DNA from: a virus
Lineage: Duplodnaviria > Heunggongvirae > Uroviricota > Caudoviricetes
Reading direction: 5' to 3' (one strand)
DNA: 64,000 nucleotides
Virus record (IMG/VR): IMGVR_UViG_3300011008_000003
In this document: piece after piece, positions 11,424 to 52,140 of the stretch
Layout of the letters: the number at the start of each line of letters is the position of its first letter
Position numbering within the stretch: the stretch's first letter is position 1
The notes under the pieces: model-generated
Seen by the model: only the letters and a program-made list of their open reading frames with translations
Told to the model about the DNA's origin: nothing
The model's database searches: none
Made by a program: the position numbers and the translations under genes

Positions 11424-12107
11424 TTAATTTGATAATTGTTGTATTCTAATAGTTTGTTTTAATCTATAAATTTCAGTTTCTCTGTCTTCTAATGAAAGTT
11501 TTTGCCAATCAGACCAACGAATTCTTTTTAATAATCTCCATCCTAAATTAATTAAATTTTCAGTACGTATTTTATCATGTAAAATACCAGTTTTTGTATA
11601 ATGCTGTTCACCATCTACTTCAATATATACTTTAATATCAGGCCAAGCATAATCTAAAAAATATCTATCTACATGATATTGTTTTTCCGCATTAGTAAAT
11701 ATTTCATTAAAATATTGTTCTGCATATGATTTCCGTTTTTCTCGTGCTGTTGTATATCTCGATATATTTTTATAATTTTCTTTTTGAACAATAGAAATTT
11801 GTTTACGTGTTTCAATCGTTTGATAATGTTTATATGCGGCTTCTGGTAATGTGCCATTTAAATAATGTTCATGTCTAGTTTCTGTATATTTAGCAACACG
11901 TAAATCATTATCTTTTGTTAATCCTTTATTCCATGCTTTATGTCCTTTTCTGGGTTTATATTTTCCTTTTTCACGATTTTCATGTAATATTTTTAAACAT
12001 CTATCATCTTTATTAGGATTTAATTTACACAAACGTTCATGATTTCGTAATGAATTTGCATTTTTGCATATTTTATTGCAATATTTACATACATAATCTT
12101 GTTTCAT
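11424..12107 (-). mobile_element. Free-standing homing-type endonuclease (Zn finger plus DUF559/Vsr-like nuclease) inside tRNA operon 1
   Basis: CKYC..HERLC, WNKGLTK, YFLDYAW...IEVDGEQH; AT-rich, inserted between tRNAs. Confidence 0.7.
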
Positions 12108-12312: not shown

Positions 12313-12395
12313 TAGTACACTAGGCGGGCTTCGAACCCGCATTTGCAGCTCCAGTTACGGCTAACGGATTAGAAGTCCGACCCGACTACTAGTGT
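12313..12395 (-). tRNA. Atypical tRNA-Arg(UCU), reduced D arm and long variable arm
   Basis: Loop CT-TCT-AA, T arm and acceptor stem intact. Confidence 0.6.
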
Positions 12396-15455: not shown

Positions 15456-16469
15456 TTATTTTTCAAATTTTCTTCTAAAATATTTTCCTTCAAAATCTTT
15501 TTTAAAACGTTCTAAGGTGTCTTCAATAATTCTTTTTGTATAACCTGTTTCTTTTTCAACTTTTCCAACCCATCCAAATTTTTGTAAATCAATACCACAA
15601 TTTAAAATAAGATTCTTACGTTCTATCCAAATTTCTTCTGATATAATATTTGGATTACCTTTACCTGATTTATCTTTTGGATATAATGATTCTTTTTTAA
15701 TTTTTGGTTTCTTTTTTAATTTTCTTATTTTTATATTAGGATATTGTTCTTGAAGTATTTTTATTTCTTCTAAATTTTTTAATTTATCTACTTTATATAA
15801 TAAATTATCTTTTTCTGAATAACGCCAAAATTCACAGTTAAGTTTTTCGATAATATATGCTTGCCTACACTTATCACGTAATATTCCTTTTATTTGTGTA
15901 TGTTTAGATTGTTTTTCATCATATTCAAAAACAATATTTAACACTTTATCATAACCATCGACATGATAAGGTCCTACTTTATATTCGCCGCCATTCATAG
16001 CGTGCTGTAAATGCCAATTATTTTTTATATTTAGTTCATCAATAAATTTACATGCTTTTTCATTATAATTACATTGGCAATTAATTATATTTTTACGTTC
16101 CAGCATTTTTTCTGCAAGTTTAGCCCTAGATTCAGGTGTATGTGGTTTACTAATACCTTTTAATTCACCAGAAGCGTATTTTCTTTTTATTGTTTCTGCA
16201 GATTTACGTTTGCTGTCAATATTAATTGTTTTTCCTAATGAATCTTTTGGTAATTTAGTTTTTTCTTCGCAATCCTTATAATGCTTATATAATTTTCGTC
16301 GTGAATAAAATATTTGATTGCAATATTGGCAAGTCCATTCTTTATATTTTGTTTTAAAACATTTTTCCGGATGCATTATATGCATATGTTCATATAATGA
16401 CATTTTTGTATCAAATACATTATTACAATAACTACATTTCCATTTATTTATTTTTATATTCGAACCCAT
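15456..16469 (-). mobile_element. Free-standing homing-type endonuclease (two Zn fingers, NUMOD3-like, PD-(D/E)XK-like)
   Basis: CSYC..H..H, CQYC..H..C, KPHTPESRAKL, VDGYD...VFEYDE; AT-rich. Confidence 0.7.
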
Positions 16470-22208: not shown

Positions 22209-22327
22209 AACAGCGGGCAGTAACTGGCAACAAGAGTAGGACTCGAACCTACGACCTTTCACCTTGCGGTGAGTGCTCTAACCAACTGAGCTACCTCGTT
22301 AATTTTATAGGAACCGCGTATGCTGTT
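22209..22327 (-). ncRNA. GUUCCUAU scaffold enclosing a complete anticodon-less tRNA mimic (22225-22300)
   Basis: D arm, T arm, acceptor with encoded CCA; anticodon loop replaced by a GCAA tetraloop. Confidence 0.65.
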
Positions 22328-30537: not shown

Positions 30538-30602
30538 AAAATTCTCCACTTTTATATTATTTATATAAAAATAAAAAAGAGGATTAAAAATCCTCTTTTT
30601 AT

Positions 30603-30688
30603 TAGTCTGCGACCCTGGACTTGAACCAGGACAAAGCAATGTCTCTGCCTTATCAGAGCAGCGTGTTAACCAATTACACCAGACGCAG
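30603..30688 (-). tRNA. tRNA-Ile(GAU), long variable arm
   Basis: Loop CT-GAT-AA. Confidence 0.8.
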
Positions 30689-30696
30689 ATATATTT

Positions 30697-30781
30697 TAGT
30701 CGGCATACCTAGACTCGAACTAGGACAAGCAATGTCTCTGCCTTATCAGAGCAGCGTGTTAACCAATTACACTATATGCCG
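30697..30781 (-). tRNA. tRNA-Ile(GAU), long variable arm
   Basis: Loop CT-GAT-AA; core nearly identical to its neighbour. Confidence 0.8.
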
Positions 30782-30787
30782 ATAATT

Positions 30788-30865
30788 TATCTCCCCTCTT
30801 GGATTCGAACCAAGGTTTTGCTTGCTTGTAAGGCAAGTGCCATAACCAGGCTAGGCGAAGGAGAG
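30788..30865 (-). tRNA. tRNA-Val(UAC)
   Basis: Loop CT-TAC-AA. Confidence 0.85.
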
Positions 30866-30866
30866 T

Positions 30867-30944
30867 TAGTACTCGATAAAGGATTCGAACCTATGACTTA
30901 CGCTTAGTCGAAGCGTCACTCTGAACCAACTGAGTTAATCGAGT
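30867..30944 (-). tRNA. tRNA-Val(GAC)
   Basis: Loop TC-GAC-TA. Confidence 0.8.
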
Positions 30945-30945
30945 A

Positions 30946-31020
30946 TAGTAGCGGCGTCGGGAATCGAACCCGAATGCCAGGATTGAAGGTCCCGTGAACT
31001 AACCATTATTCTACGTCGCC
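30946..31020 (-). tRNA. tRNA-Glu(UUC)
   Basis: Loop CC-TTC-AA. Confidence 0.8.
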
Positions 31021-31026
31021 ATATTT

Positions 31027-31102
31027 TAGTAGTCCTATACAGATTCGAACTGTAGTAACTTGGCTGAGAACCAAGTGGCCTTGACCGCTAGCCGATAGAA
31101 CC
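31027..31102 (-). tRNA. tRNA-Glu(CUC)
   Basis: Loop TT-CTC-AG. Confidence 0.85.
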
Positions 31103-31106
31103 ATAT

Positions 31107-31184
31107 TAGTGCCCCCGGCAGGAATCGAACCTGCGACGCTTGGATCTTCAGTCCAACGCTCTACCAAAACTGAGCTACAGAGGC
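31107..31184 (-). tRNA. tRNA-Phe(GAA)
   Basis: Loop CT-GAA-GA. Confidence 0.9.
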
Positions 31185-31185
31185 A

Positions 31186-31262
31186 TATTACCAGGCTCGG
31201 AATCGAACCGAGAATCTTTTGTCCTTCCGAACAAACGCTCTTACCATTTGAGCTAACCCAGC
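31186..31262 (-). tRNA. Atypical tRNA, anticodon undetermined (8-nt loop or GGAA tetraloop)
   Basis: Normal D and T arms; TTTGT-TCGGAAGG-ACAAA. Confidence 0.55.
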
Positions 31263-31263
31263 A

Positions 31264-31341
31264 TAGTGGAGGCAGCTGGAATTGAACCAACTTAGAGAGG
31301 AACATTCTATGCAAAGATTGCGGAAAGTAACCTTTGCCCCC
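31264..31341 (-). tRNA. Atypical Ala-type tRNA-like RNA
   Basis: Acceptor GGGGGCA/TGCCTCC-A with G3:U70; T arm present, D and anticodon arms irregular. Confidence 0.45.
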
Positions 31342-31343
31342 AT

Positions 31344-31420
31344 TAGTGGATCCAGTGGTATTCGAAACCACAACCTTCGGTGTGCAAAACCGACGCTCTG
31401 CCAAATTGAGCTATGAACCC
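31344..31420 (-). tRNA. tRNA-Ala(UGC)
   Basis: Loop TT-TGC-AC. Confidence 0.85.
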
Positions 31421-31426
31421 ATATTT

Positions 31427-31504
31427 TCGTGGACCTGACGAGACTCGAACTCGTAAACCTTCTGCTTGCAAAGCAGTTGCGCTACCAAATTGCGCCACAA
31501 GCCC
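31427..31504 (-). tRNA. tRNA-Ala(UGC)
   Basis: Loop TT-TGC-AA. Confidence 0.85.
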
Positions 31505-31552
31505 AAAAATAAAACTGACCTTACTCATCTCAACGCGTACTATTGACTTTCG

Positions 31553-31627
31553 GTTAGCGCATACGGGATTCGAACCCGTGACCAGCGGCCTTCACACCGC
31601 TTGTTCTACCGCCGAACAAAATGCGTT
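31553..31627 (-). tRNA. tRNA-Phe(GAA), divergent
   Basis: GTGAAG in anticodon loop, T arm GGTTCGAATCC. Confidence 0.6.
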
Positions 31628-31635
31628 ATCAGTTT

Positions 31636-31712
31636 TAGTGGACACATATGGGATTCGAACCCATGACGTTTTCCCTGCCAGGGAAACATTCTACCAACTG
31701 AATTAATGGCCC
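31636..31712 (-). tRNA. tRNA-Ala(GGC)
   Basis: Loop CT-GGC-AG. Confidence 0.8.
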
Positions 31713-31720
31713 ATGATTTT

Positions 31721-31797
31721 TAGTAGCGCTGTCGGGACTTGAACCCGAATTTCCGACTTGAAAGGCCGGTGAACTAAACCAGTTATTCGACAGCGCC
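31721..31797 (-). tRNA. tRNA-Glu(UUC)
   Basis: Loop CT-TTC-AA. Confidence 0.85.
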
Positions 31798-31806
31798 ATA
31801 GTTTGT

Positions 31807-31883
31807 TCGTGGACAAGACGGAATTCGAATCCGTGACCTCCGCATTGCAGGTGCGGCGTTCTACCAAACTGAACTACAAGCCC
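31807..31883 (-). tRNA. tRNA-Ala(UGC)
   Basis: Loop CC-TGC-AA. Confidence 0.8.
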
Positions 31884-31887
31884 ATAT

Positions 31888-31963
31888 TAGTACTCCGTCC
31901 CGGATTCGAACCGGGGTTATCCGATAGAAAGTCGGATGGCTTAAACCGCTGGCCGAACGGAGC
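31888..31963 (-). tRNA. tRNA-Glu(UUC)
   Basis: Loop CT-TTC-TA. Confidence 0.85.
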
Positions 31964-31971
31964 ATATTTTA

Positions 31972-32047
31972 TAGTGCCAAGTTCCGGAGTCGAACCGGAT
32001 TTCTGGGATTTTCAGTCCCGTCCATTCCCACGATTGGATGCCATGGC
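31972..32047 (-). tRNA. tRNA-Phe(GAA)
   Basis: Loop CT-GAA-AA. Confidence 0.8.
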
Positions 32048-32049
32048 AT

Positions 32050-32080
32050 AAAAGAAAGGTTCCTGTTGTGCACAGGAACC
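32050..32080 (-). terminator. Attenuator terminator, tRNA operon 5
   Basis: GGTTCCTGT-GCACA-ACAGGAACC followed by TTTCTTTT. Confidence 0.85.
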
Positions 32081-32110
32081 GTAAATTCTTCATACTCTTA
32101 GGTAATCGCT

Positions 32111-32218
32111 TTACTTGAACCTGTGCACTGAATTGTCAATCGCAAATACACGTTCTGCAAATTCTGCAATACGTTCTGCTGCGACCGCGATGAATTCAAT
32201 GTTAAAGTTCTTGTTCAT
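32111..32218 (-). CDS. Leader peptide 5, MNKNFNIEFIAVAAERIAEFAERVFAIDNSVHRFK
   Basis: AAAGG RBS; Phe, Glu, Ala, Val, Ile(ATY) codons match downstream tRNAs. Confidence 0.85.
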   Translation of the reverse strand: MNKNFNIEFIAVAAERIAEFAERVFAIDNSVHRFK

Positions 32219-32398
32219 TTTGTTACCTTTTATATTATATATAAAAATGTTTTTCCTGTTTTCGCAAAATAGATTCGGCCAATGGACTCCATCCAAAGTT
32301 TTACGTTAGCGCTGCACCGAATCATCTGATGCATCAGTTATGTTTAAAATATAGTAAAAAGTTTTTGGTTTGTCAACCCTCTTTTTAAAATATTTTTT

Positions 32399-32517
32399 TA
32401 GGCGGCGAGACTGGACTCGAACCAGCAACCCAAAGTACCCATTAAATAGGAATCATCGGTGCTAGAAAGCGGATAATAAAATATAAACTTTTGCTCTACC
32501 ATTGAGCTACCCGCCGC
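32399..32517 (-). ncRNA. tRNA body whose anticodon loop is replaced by a circularly permuted scaffold motif
   Basis: Canonical D and T arms; insert TTATCCGCT-TTCT-AGCACCGATGATTCCTATT. Confidence 0.6.
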
Positions 32518-32522
32518 ATATT

Positions 32523-32587
32523 GTTAAAGCGGAATGTAAGTAAACAATAAAGGAAGTTTTTGAATAGGAACATTCATTTGCTTTAAC
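32523..32587 (-). ncRNA. GUUCCUAU scaffold RNA with unstructured insert
   Basis: AGCA-AAT-GAATGTTCCTATT...TACATTC-CGCT. Confidence 0.55.
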
Positions 32588-32635
32588 GGTTGTAAATATA
32601 GTAAAGATTGTTTGGTTTGTCAACCCCCTTTTTAA

Positions 32636-33242
32636 TTAAAATGCGTTAAAGAATTTTCGCACTTTATCAATCCAGGTAGGAAGCGTCCAACGCTGTTCAA
32701 TCTTTCGGCCATCAGGCAAGATGGTCGTTTTATAATAGGTCTTGTAATCCCAAGTTCTATGATCGTCATAATGGATTTCAGCATTATTTTCTTCATCATA
32801 CTGGCGATAACTATCAGACACATAGTTTTGATTTCCTGTATGCGGATAATAAAAATTATGATATTCACGTTCGTAAATAACACGATTCTTGTCATCATAA
32901 GTATAATATGTAAGAGACACGCTTTCGTCAGAACGGTTTTCATGCTTCATGTAGAAAACATGCTTAATACAGCGGTTCTTGCTGTCATATTCATTAAATT
33001 CGCGATGTAATTCTGTAATATTATTATGTACCGACACGACATATTCATGAGACAACCGGTTATTGTTTTCGTCAAATGTCGAATTAGTATAGTATGAACC
33101 GCGTTCTTCGTCCGGATAAATAACCGATGAATGAATAACATTGCCGCGTTCATCCTTAACTTCGGTACGTGTATCGGCTGGGGATACAACCTTGACACCA
33201 TTATCGATAATCGTATAGCTTTTATCGGGATTCTGCCAGTTT
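32636..33242 (-). pseudogene. YD-repeat-like reading frame lacking a good start codon
   Basis: Frame stays open about 60 codons upstream of the TTG at 33055, with the same xDExxN repeats, back to a TAA. Confidence 0.45.
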
Positions 33243-49109: not shown

Positions 49110-50124
49110 TATTTTACCTTTAATTAAACTTTGTATTAACAAAGATAGAAAGCGTATTACAATCCAATTGTAAACTTATTTTTTACGTTCTTCTGGTTTT
49201 TTCACTTCGAAATAACGCATATCGATAAGACGCTTGCGTAAGTCATTGAGGGTATCACGTTCCTTAACTACAACACCGCCGACCAATGTGATACCGAGGA
49301 GGGTCAGAATAGTTTTGATTACTTTATTCATTTTATTGTCCTTTAATAAATCTGGGCACAAATATAGAAATTTTTTCGATTTTGTAAACTAATATGATAA
49401 TAACTGTCGAAATTCATTCGTGAGAAAACTGAACTTATATTGCAGTTCCTTCATCGCCTTCGCCCAGTCCTTGAAAGTATCATGTCTCTTGATATGAATA
49501 GCATATCCAGGCAATTGGTCAAAACCGGCCTTGCATTCGCTGAATTGCCAGTATTTTGAATTTATAAACATCTGCTTGATAACTGGCTTCTGTTCGAAAA
49601 CGATATAAGCAGAAGAATATGACGGGCTTTCACAGCCGTCGACAAAGACTTCATCGATTGCATGGCCAACACAGCAGAAATAGGTTTTAATTCCGTGAGA
49701 ATTACAACGCATAACGACATCGGCGATATGTTCGTCGACTACTACGAAATCTTTGAATTCTTCTTCATGAATAATGAAATTACCAATACTGGTATACATG
49801 TATTCTTGGGTCTTAAAATTTACTAACGGACCTGGAAGATTTGTCCATTTAAGCTCAGTAGCTGTCATTTGAGTAATTCCGTAAATTTATCAGCCAGAAT
49901 TTTGGCTTTAGATCGCGTTTCTACTTTCTTTTCACCAGATTTTTTCAAACCCGAAAGATAAGGATCGTTATTGACATATTCCCTAATCGAATTGCAGATA
50001 GCTTCGACTTCAATACCGATAAGCCTGGTACGTTCACCAAGTTCTTTGATTTCGTCGTGTTCTGCGTCTAATTCGCGTTCAAGGCTATATGCTTTGCAAA
50101 AATCAGAAAAATGTTTATCTTTTA

Positions 50125-50916: not shown

Positions 50917-52140
50917 AGTTACGCCAATTCATTGAGAATGCTTTCCGTTTCAATATTTTCAACAACAATTTCCGGATGTATGCCGTTATCCATAGCTTTT
51001 ATGAAACGTCCGAGAATGTATAACATGTTTGTAAAATTGGAATTGGAAAACTTTTTGTAATAGAGGTAGTCAATTGTAGATTCTGTATGAGTATTGTCAT
51101 CATAGATTGAAATTTTGAAATAATCATACGAGAAAGATAAGTTCATCGTAAAACGACTCGACTTGTGAAGACGAAATAGACGTTCTTTAACAAGTTCTTC
51201 CATAATGAACATCTTAGATTCAGTAAAAGCTTTGATTATACGTGTACGAATAAAGTTATACTGTGCATCGTCAGAAAAATTATATGCAAGCCAGTCAAGT
51301 GGATTCTCGTTTTTTGCGTCGTTACGTTTCGGAGGATTCTTGGAATAAGCCTGATAATACTTAGCCTTTGACTTTTCAAATTTTGTCTGAGTCTTAATCA
51401 TCGGATTTCTTCTTCCTACGAGTTGTTTTACGTTTTGTCGGTTTCTGAGCAGCCTTATTTGTATCAAGCAGTTCGTTCAGTTTATCTTCTGTACTAGATA
51501 CGAGATAGTCGTATTCGCTGGCGAGCTTATTGGCCTGTGCGGTTTCTTTCGACATTTTGGACTGGTAGACAATTTCTTCATGGCCTTCGCCAATCAGACC
51601 GTGCCTGTACTTGAACATATCGAGCAGTTGCCATGCCAGTTCGTATGTCGGAATCAAACTACCGCTAGCCCAAGTACCGCAATCGCTGATAGATACGAGC
51701 TTCGGCTTTGTGATAGAGTTGTATTCCAAAAATTCTTGCTGATTATACTTCAAGTTTTTCCAGCTCGGATGCCAGAGATTCCATAAAGAAGGTTCATCTT
51801 TATATTGAACAATAAACCAGTCCACACCGTGATACCTGTATGGATAGCTATATTCAGGTCTTGCTTTGGTTTTAACGATTCTAAATTCCATGTACTAAAT
51901 ATAAAAAATGGGTCGACGTTTGTCAACCCGTTTTTTTAAAGTACACATATATCACATTCTTGAATTTCGTCGTGTTCGTATTTAGCAATCCGTTCAGCCG
52001 GTAATTCTGGACCTATTCCAGCATTATAAAAAAAGTCAATTTCTTTTTCATATGACTCTGCTAAAACGTCATAATTAATGGACGTACAGTAATTAAATTC
52101 AATACACATACATCCTTTAACTTTTTCAAAATATATATCT

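Follow-up and report, generated by a model that had tools for sequence, protein, structure and literature searches.

Introduction

Several leader-peptide attenuators of enterobacterial amino-acid operons respond to more than one amino acid, among them ilvL of the ilvGMEDA operon (Ile, Val and Leu) and thrL (Thr and Ile); trpL, hisL, leuL and pheL are further leader-peptide attenuators. A gene of the translation apparatus is controlled in a similar way in E. coli, where pheST, which codes for phenylalanyl-tRNA synthetase, is preceded by the pheM leader, a Phe-rich peptide through which attenuation responds to charged tRNA-Phe. For decades there has been debate over why phages have tRNA genes, with two main explanations: codon compensation, and the replacement of tRNAs that host defences destroy. 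The second of these has been argued for (PMC10264068) and illustrated (PMC11464382). Full-text searches yielded no report of tRNA genes under the control of a leader peptide, and the mention of a "tRNA operon" in PMC3082878 concerns supercoiling of the proM operon.

We analysed a 64,000-nucleotide stretch of DNA from a tailed phage (IMG/VR record IMGVR_UViG_3300011008_000003), hereafter the window. The original prediction, made from the sequence alone, had read one locus in the window as an attenuator that senses Phe, Glu, Ala, Val and Ile(AUY) codons. We computed the anatomy of the locus, its codon match, its alternative pairings, the dependence of these pairings on ribosome position and the co-variation of leader and tRNA genes in relatives. 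The codon match, the folds of the predicted switch and the relatives all lend support to that reading. We propose that the locus is probably a ribosome-mediated, leader-peptide transcription attenuator, which would couple transcription of a 17-gene tRNA operon to the speed at which the matching codons are decoded.

In its anatomy the locus resembles the ilvL and thrL class. A short ORF with a ribosome-binding site lies between the promoter and the genes to be regulated, and the ORF is enriched in codons that report on the regulated function, which here belong to several amino acids. An intrinsic terminator separates the ORF from the genes, and an antiterminator is, by sequence and folding, mutually exclusive with the terminator, its upstream strand being placed where a ribosome finishing the ORF would cover it. 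Like leaders of this class, the phage leader is strongly structured, and in constrained folding models the position of the ribosome selects the helix. Unlike this class, the phage unit controls tRNAs rather than biosynthetic enzymes, so that its product would act directly on decoding speed. It samples five amino acids with isoacceptor-specific codons that are spread over 23 codons instead of forming a run, it is encoded by a phage, and it has five parallel counterparts, the six channels covering most of the code between them. The pheM system shares with it the attenuation of a translation-apparatus gene by a codon-rich leader peptide, but pheM is cellular, senses a single amino acid and has a protein enzyme as its product. 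T-boxes (RF00230) likewise tie terminator read-through to the status of specific tRNAs, but they bind uncharged tRNA directly and have no translated ORF. A search of positions 31180-32120 gave no Rfam match to the T-box at E <= 10, and no known Rfam cis-regulatory family was found in the leader, where the only hit was PyrG_leader at the chance level of 20.7 bits against a threshold of 65.

Results

Layout of the leader and its tRNA operon

The locus lies on the minus strand, from 32376 to 32048, and is ordered as promoter, ribosome-binding site, leader ORF and terminator, followed by 17 tRNA or tRNA-like genes. The promoter is of the sigma-70 type (32348-32376, minus strand), with TTGACA and TATATT separated by 17 nt and a match to 11 of 12 consensus positions. 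It is embedded in a recurring box, GGGTTGACA, that heads tRNA units and is present upstream of other units and in the relatives as well. Between the promoter and the leader, a structured insert of about 80 nt occupies the 5' UTR (32264-32344, minus strand) and varies among strains: the window, the phage genome G001 and the related sequences L157 and L162 carry it, and it is missing from a second phage genome, G002, and from L195 and L199. One contig from an RNA library joins 32264 to 32344 without the insert. We conclude that the insert is not needed for the attenuator. Contig ends near 32253-32264 coincide with this strain-variable insert and do not count as evidence for a transcription start.

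Directly upstream of the ribosome-binding site is an A/T-rich box, TATATATAATATAAA (32229-32243, minus strand), identified by its recurrence and its retention in relatives. The exact box occurs five times in the window, each time just upstream of the leader ORF of a tRNA unit, and when up to two mismatches are allowed the window holds 10 matches compared with 1.4 expected. The box is possibly a second, phage-specific promoter or a translation enhancer. The Shine-Dalgarno sequence AAAGG (32226-32230, minus strand) stands 7 nt before the ATG, and both its motif and its spacing are those found before the long genes of the phage. The leader ORF itself (32111-32218, minus strand) has 35 codons and a TAA stop and is kept in 14 distinct homologous sequences. 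Its stop codon is followed by a 30-nt spacer and then by an intrinsic terminator (32049-32080, minus strand) with a GC-rich stem of 9 bp, GGTTCCTGT and ACAGGAACC, a loop of 5 nt and a T-rich tail, the hairpin spanning 32080-32058 and the T tract following it.

The genes that the leader would control were identified with ARAGORN and Rfam and occupy 30605-32047 on the minus strand; they are followed by an operon-end terminator (30574-30600, minus strand) that consists of a 12-bp stem and a T run. We found no promoter in the gap between the leader's hairpin and the tRNA genes, where the T tract directly adjoins the first tRNA-like gene. Because the T tract abuts this gene and no promoter lies between, the tRNAs would be made only by read-through of the terminator.

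tRNA genes behind the leader

ARAGORN finds 52 tRNA genes in the window, every one of them on the minus strand, and Rfam adds a few atypical ones. By both programs, the operon under study contains four Glu genes (three TTC and one CTC) and four Ala genes (three TGC and one GGC), together with Val GAC, Val TAC, two Ile GAT and one canonical Phe GAA gene at 31184-31110. The rest of the 17-gene array is made up of a Phe-like gene, two GAA tRNAs with 8-nt anticodon loops and a conserved tRNA-like element at 31345-31264. The Phe-like gene is the first one after the terminator (32047-31975); it scores 23.7 bits, which is below the Rfam threshold, and has the loop CUGAAAA, and ARAGORN calls Phe at the same position in the relative L158. 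The two RNAs with 8-nt loops both contain GAA within the loop, which reads UCGGAAGG in the RNA at 31263-31188 and UGUGAAGG in the tRNA at 31628-31552. In the relative L172, ARAGORN finds a plain Phe(GAA) tRNA at the array position of 31628-31552. From their sequences, both RNAs look like Phe-type tRNAs with an expanded loop and not like Arg tRNAs. The Glu, Ala, Val and Ile(GAT) genes are thus present in the numbers first listed for this operon (four, four, two and two), and the three Phe genes of that list are an approximate count, one of them being canonical.

These loops also bear on how the leader's two CGT Arg codons are read. As had been noted at the outset, neither has a cognate tRNA in this operon; an Arg(ACG) gene is present at 21772-21696, in the unit for Asp, Arg, Lys, Gly and His. 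The original prediction offered the RNA at 31186-31262 as a reader of CGT by way of a TCG in its loop. A UCG anticodon reads CGA and CGG, not CGU, by the standard wobble rules. With a loop, UCGGAAGG, that contains GAA, and with wobble against a UCG-CGU pairing, we reject this RNA (31188-31263) as an Arg tRNA for CGT. Decoding of CGT is explained more simply by the phage Arg(ACG) tRNA of the other unit or by a host tRNA.

Metatranscriptome contigs from two studies, one of sheep and one of cattle, span the leader, the terminator and the tRNAs. Such contigs could arise from DNA carry-over, and, as assembled contigs, these RNA data carry no 3' ends, strand or levels; they give weak support for the attenuator.

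Codon content of the leader

To score the leader, we defined the decodable codons by standard wobble from Phe GAA, Glu TTC and CTC, Ala TGC and GGC, Val GAC and TAC, and Ile GAT. The canonical tRNAs of the operon read 22 of the 34 sense codons that follow the ATG. The match is densest in codons 5-27 (32138-32206, minus strand), which we designate the sensor core on the basis of its match to the operon's tRNAs: 20 of these 23 codons specify Phe, Ile (ATY), Glu (GAA), Ala (GCR) or Val, and the exceptions are one Asn and the two Arg CGT codons. The core that had been described ahead of the Phe, Glu, Ala, Val and Ile genes is therefore real and corresponds to codons 5-27 of the ORF at 32218-32111. 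In the long ORFs of the phage, the same codon set has a background use of 0.29, which gives binomial tails of 1.9e-5 (whole ORF) and 1.4e-8 (core). When a window of 34 codons was slid along these long ORFs, 22 matched codons were reached at none of 9,949 positions, the maximum being 19. The choice among synonymous codons follows the tRNAs as well, with all six Ala codons being GCR (p = 0.012) and all four Ile codons ATY. The match is imperfect, as the two CGT and four Asn codons have no tRNA in the operon.

The window contains six such units, in each of which a leader ORF (20-35 codons) is followed by a terminator and then by a tRNA block; five have the exact A/T box in common and the sixth has a one-base variant of it. 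When the six leaders were scored against the six tRNA sets, the pairing of each leader with its own set matched 90 of 165 codons, which is the unique best of the 720 possible assignments (mean, 28.7; runner-up, 73). Synonymous codons are also split by unit for Lys (AAA or AAG), Ser (TCN or AGY), Ile (ATA or ATY) and Arg (AGR or CGN), with a pooled Fisher p = 7.6e-6. The unit that carries Lys(CTT) encodes Lys by AAG, and the unit that carries Lys(TTT) mostly by AAA. For Ser, AGY codons go together with a Ser(GCT) gene and TCN codons with Ser(TGA) and Ser(AGA) genes, and Ile is ATY in the leader studied here and ATA elsewhere. The observation that synonymous codons track the anticodons argues for a role in decoding rather than for a function of the peptide.

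Pairing of the leader with the terminator

Codons 31-33 of the leader contain a candidate antiterminator strand, segment 2, with the sequence GTGCACAGG (32120-32128, minus strand), identified by complementarity and folding. Its partner, segment 3, is CCTGTGCAC (32068-32076, minus strand), which spans the final five bases of the 5' arm of the terminator and four bases of its loop. Segment 2 (32128-32120) is the exact reverse complement of segment 3 (32076-32068), and the 2:3 duplex has an energy of -18.8 kcal/mol that was matched in 0 of 300 shuffles. The pairing between the end of the ORF and the terminator that appeared in the original prediction was borne out in this way, as a perfect complement of nine bases. 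In all six units, the region upstream of the terminator pairs best with the arm of its own terminator, with one tie (U2 with U5).

We then modelled the switch by folding transcripts cut at the terminator loop, with the ribosome masked codon by codon. In these constrained folds, which are models only, the antiterminator is present with the A site at codons 2-27, weaker at codons 28-29 and gone from codon 30 onward. The loss begins right after codon 27, which is the last codon of the enriched core, and in the model the unmatched codons 28-30 act as a spacer. A similar flip was found in units U0, U2 and U3, near the end of the matched stretch of each, and in U5 the partner strand lies 3' of the stop codon, as it does in trp.

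On its own, the leader ORF is structured to an unusual degree (-34.1 kcal/mol, z = -3.7), and in this fold codons 3-9 pair with the region of segment 2, in the manner of a 1:2 hairpin. When segment 3 is present the minimum-energy fold favors 2:3, whereas the ORF alone instead sequesters segment 2, making the ribosome-free state ambiguous. In the full-length fold, an anti-SD-like UUACCU past the stop codon can pair with the ribosome-binding site. The terminator was kept in every equilibrium fold of the full leader, with the ribosome masked at various codons, which is what a kinetic switch would be expected to show. As a result, the model depends on the kinetics of folding during transcription.

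The attenuator that we propose would operate as follows. Transcription would start at the promoter at 32376-32348, and a ribosome would load at the AAAGG and ATG and translate the 35-codon leader while the polymerase nears the terminator. If the ribosome passes quickly through the Phe, Ile(AUY), Glu(GAA), Ala(GCR) and Val codons, it would reach codons 28-35 and cover segment 2. With GTGCACAGG covered, the terminator hairpin would form and transcription would end before the tRNA genes. Slow reading of any of these codons, because the tRNA of host or phage is scarce, uncharged or damaged, would stall the ribosome within codons 5-27; segment 2 would then be free to pair with segment 3, in the terminator's 5' arm and loop, and the polymerase would read through into the tRNA genes. 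The new tRNAs would relieve the stall, which would close a negative feedback loop. We infer translation of the leader ORF, stalling and regulated read-through from the computed features of the locus.

Leaders in related phages

A blastn search with positions 31900-32700 gave no match among 50,697 GenBank phage records. In IMG/VR, the window matches two complete phage genomes with terminal repeats, of 415 kb and 424 kb (G001 and G002), and many fragments from gut or rumen samples of sheep and cattle. The leader and its tRNA units come from a giant rumen phage. A general form of the box, TTTTATATATAATATAAA, was found at 119 loci in IMG/VR, just 11 of which have related tRNA arrays; we rejected the remaining loci, which have no related tRNA arrays, as chance matches in AT-rich viruses.

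Two scans, one with the terminator arm and one with the first Glu tRNA as query, recovered 14 distinct homologous leaders, which fall into three types. Type A is found in the window, L158, L172 and others, with a close variant in G001, L100, L163, L177 and L189, and its core includes Ile and Val codons. Type B (G002, G003, L157, L160, L162 and others) and type C (L184, L195 and L199) are rich in Phe, Ala and Glu codons, with no Ile codon and one or two Val codons in the core. The operons follow the same division: B and C leaders are followed by tRNA genes for Glu, Ala and Phe and by none for Val or Ile, and the operons behind A leaders mostly have Val and in several cases also Ile genes (the window, L171 and L189). 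Across the three types the peptide sequence is not conserved and the composition class is. The leaders of the window and G001 differ by four amino-acid replacements, all of which are exchanges within F, I, V, E and A.

In the alignment of the 14 sequences, conservation is highest in the RNA elements. Invariant blocks are formed by the A/T box together with the ribosome-binding site, by a short stretch, GCAGCAGAACG, by segment 2, in which only C/T variation occurs, and by the 5' arm of the terminator. The invariance of the 5' arm fits with the need for it to form helices with two different partners. Type C leaders keep GTGCATAGG even though the reading frame differs and the stop codon falls inside segment 2, suggesting that segment 2 is conserved as RNA. 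Across the 14 homologues, 100% of cells are paired in the antiterminator and 94.6% in the terminator. We detected no compensatory double changes in either helix among the 14 orthologues, where the changes run from G-C to G-U and affect one side only. In the absence of two-sided changes among orthologues, support for the helices comes from conservation, from independence of the reading frame and from the comparison of paralogous units.

We also compared leader codons with tRNA gene content in the two complete genomes. Each leader matched against its own set scores 79 of 143 codons in G001 and 87 of 143 in G002, in each case the best of 120 assignments. The Tyr/Met/Ser operon of G002 houses Ile(GAT), Cys and Gln(CTG) genes, and its leader has four Ile, three Cys and three Gln codons, the last all CAG, whereas the counterpart leader in the window has no Ile, one Cys and no Gln codon. 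In the Leu/Ser/Trp leader of G002, the Cys codons have been lost together with the Cys gene. The Asn/Pro/Thr operon of G002 has a Val(TAC) gene, and five Val codons are present in its leader, four of the five being GTA. In relatives whose leader stands before Gln(CTG) as the sole Gln gene, 5 of 5 Gln cases are CAG, and with Val(TAC) behind the leader, 4 of 5 Val cases are GTA. For presence or absence of Ile, Val, Cys and Gln in orthologous units of the three genomes, all eight differences run in the predicted direction. For all amino acids, 8 of 11 real differences fit, with an atypical Arg tRNA missed by ARAGORN set aside.

There are exceptions to this pattern. The Leu, Met and Tyr genes in the long Asn/Pro/Thr unit of G002 are not mirrored in its leader. 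The leader of L158 is identical to that of the window and its tRNA block ends before the Val and Ile genes; this contig is a mosaic. The G001 leader has four Ile codons and there is no Ile(GAT) homologue anywhere in that genome. L189, which has the same leader as G001, has two Ile(GAT) genes.

Discussion

Three other explanations of the locus were weighed against the attenuator. The ORF could encode a small functional peptide, for example an amphipathic helix, in which case its likeness to the tRNA set would be accidental and the hairpin would be the ordinary terminator of a mini-gene. A good ribosome-binding site and an ORF conserved in relatives are both compatible with this, and a 35-mer rich in Ala, Glu, Phe and Ile could form a helix. 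However, what types A, B and C have in common is a composition class and not a peptide sequence, and that composition moves with tRNA genes between operons. Synonymous codons track anticodons, the codon match recurs in all six units, and the tRNAs lie past a terminator with no promoter of their own, all of which makes a peptide function extremely unlikely. The device could instead report amino-acid starvation or the general state of translation, for instance to time tRNA synthesis to a phase of infection, rather than tRNA supply. It is established from the trp and his leaders that a missing and an uncharged tRNA look alike to a leader-peptide attenuator, and the two promoter-like elements upstream also speak for this reading. 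Nonetheless, more tRNA would be no cure for starvation, and matching of leader to anticodons would then bring no benefit. The isoacceptor-specific choice of codons, such as CAG where only Gln(CTG) follows, points to tRNA species and not to amino acids, and we regard the starvation reading as very unlikely.

Another alternative accepts that translation of the leader regulates the tRNAs and places the control elsewhere than in the 2:3 pairing: in access of Rho, in processing by RNase, in folding of the first tRNA, or in a switch of opposite sign, where stalling lowers tRNA output. The nine-base stretch that perfectly complements the terminator arm is far from what chance would give (0 of 300 shuffles), is matched to the unit's own terminator in each of the six units, is kept regardless of reading frame and changes its accessibility at the end of the sensor core, and each of these points speaks for 2:3 pairing. 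A switch of opposite sign would give positive feedback with no evident use. What keeps this alternative in consideration is that the helices show no compensatory double changes among orthologues, that the folds of the ribosome-free state are ambiguous and that UUACCU has the ribosome-binding site as a possible partner when the full-length RNA is folded. On balance, we consider it unlikely.

We conclude that the proposed attenuator combines known and new elements. Judged from the sequence, its anatomy appears to be that of the classical leader-peptide attenuator. New are a tRNA product that acts on the signal being measured, the number of amino acids sensed, the use of isoacceptor-specific codons, the phage setting and the six channels. 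If the model is correct, the phage would measure decoding capacity codon by codon and supply tRNAs on demand, a direct feedback on the translation machinery that is not known from classical attenuation. It would also allow the codons that a phage expects to be in short supply to be read from sequence alone, and would account for the splitting of large phage tRNA arrays into operons sorted by amino acid. For synthetic biology, the leader would offer a compact natural sensor of multiple codons.

A broader and more tentative possibility is that the six attenuators act as the sensors in a phage circuit whose role is to restore decoding capacity. We regard this circuit as less likely than not. Host tRNAs might be cut or depleted, either by anticodon nucleases of host defence or by host shut-off, and the leader codons would then be read slowly, switching on the matching set of replacement tRNAs channel by channel. 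The odd tRNAs, that is, those with 8-nt anticodon loops and the divergent copies with the same anticodon, might be nuclease-resistant or serve as decoys, and the modules might evolve by joint movement of tRNA genes and sensor codons between operons.

Similar units are apparently present in a cultured phage, Caulobacter phage phiCbK (JX100813), which makes the idea testable at the bench. An annotated terminator at 51465-51502 of phiCbK stands before tRNAs for Phe, Val, Ile (two), Val and Gln (two), and ahead of this terminator there is an unannotated ORF with a core that, by eye, is rich in Gln, Phe, Val and Ile. Another annotated terminator, at 49745-49769, lies between the 45-aa gp083 and tRNAs for Pro, Lys, Leu and Ser. 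Compared by eye only, phiCbK resembles the window in the succession of small ORF, terminator and tRNA block, but it is a GC-rich phage of another subfamily and its sequence is unrelated.

Atypical tRNAs and tRNA-like elements in and near the leader-tRNA units

Within the Phe/Glu/Ala/Val/Ile unit, on the minus strand, we identified two tRNAs with anticodon loops of eight nucleotides, UGUGAAGG in the gene at 31552-31628 and UCGGAAGG in the gene at 31188-31263, each loop including GAA, the anticodon of Phe. In relatives the two genes are conserved at 94-100% identity, and at the array position of 31552-31628 relative L172 carries a gene that ARAGORN calls as a plain Phe(GAA) tRNA. The two tRNAs could be quadruplet decoders, or they could represent nuclease-resistant or decoy forms. 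The same strand carries a tRNA-like element at 31264-31345, whose acceptor stem and T arm are good and whose loop, UUGCAUA, resembles that of Ala TGC, but which lacks a normal D arm. It is called as a tRNA by neither ARAGORN nor the tRNA model of Rfam, and it is conserved at 84-97% identity across ten relatives.

Other unusual tRNA genes were found on the minus strand. Immediately upstream of the Phe/Glu/Ala/Val/Ile unit, a tRNA whose anticodon region carries about 43 inserted nt (32401-32516; Rfam, 49.3 bits) has its own promoter at 32623-32595. Between the promoter and leader of the Asp/Arg/Lys/Gly/His unit, a helix encloses a tRNA-like gene with a short anticodon loop (22225-22300; Rfam, 49.4 bits), and a tRNA-like gene is also present at the matching position in the complete related phage genome G001. 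The Arg tRNA at 12315-12395 and its homologues L151 and L152 are of unusual build, the D arm being reduced and the extra arm long, and ARAGORN misses or miscalls them. The anticodon loop is CUUCUAA (TCT) at 12315-12395 and CUACGAA (ACG) in G001 and in G002, a second complete related genome.

Elements accompanying the tRNA blocks

In the 5' UTR of the Phe/Glu/Ala/Val/Ile unit, a structured insert some 80 nt long separates the promoter from the leader (32264-32344, minus strand); it may be a member of a small-RNA family. Its outer stem differs from that of G001 on both strands (GATTCGG/CCGAATC versus AACCCGG/CTGGGTT in G001), and the insert is absent from G002, L195 and L199.

The motif TATAAATAATATAAA occurs window-wide, for example at 2848, 30551 and 44982, with 14-19 copies in each of the complete genomes G001 and G002, and resembles a promoter of a phage-specific (late) type. 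In the tRNA leaders the motif takes the variant form TATATATAATATAAA.

Two zinc-finger-rich ORFs of 227 aa (11424-12107) and 337 aa (15456-16469) lie on the minus strand inside or between tRNA blocks. They possibly encode homing-endonuclease-like proteins, an identity that could account for the mosaic way in which tRNA genes are shuffled between relatives.

Comparison with Caulobacter phage phiCbK

In the cultured Caulobacter phage phiCbK (JX100813, 47000-53000), each of three tRNA blocks lies directly behind an annotated rho-independent terminator. Small ORFs are found upstream of those terminators, namely gp083 and an unannotated ORF before 51465, and, judged by eye, their composition is similar to the tRNAs downstream.
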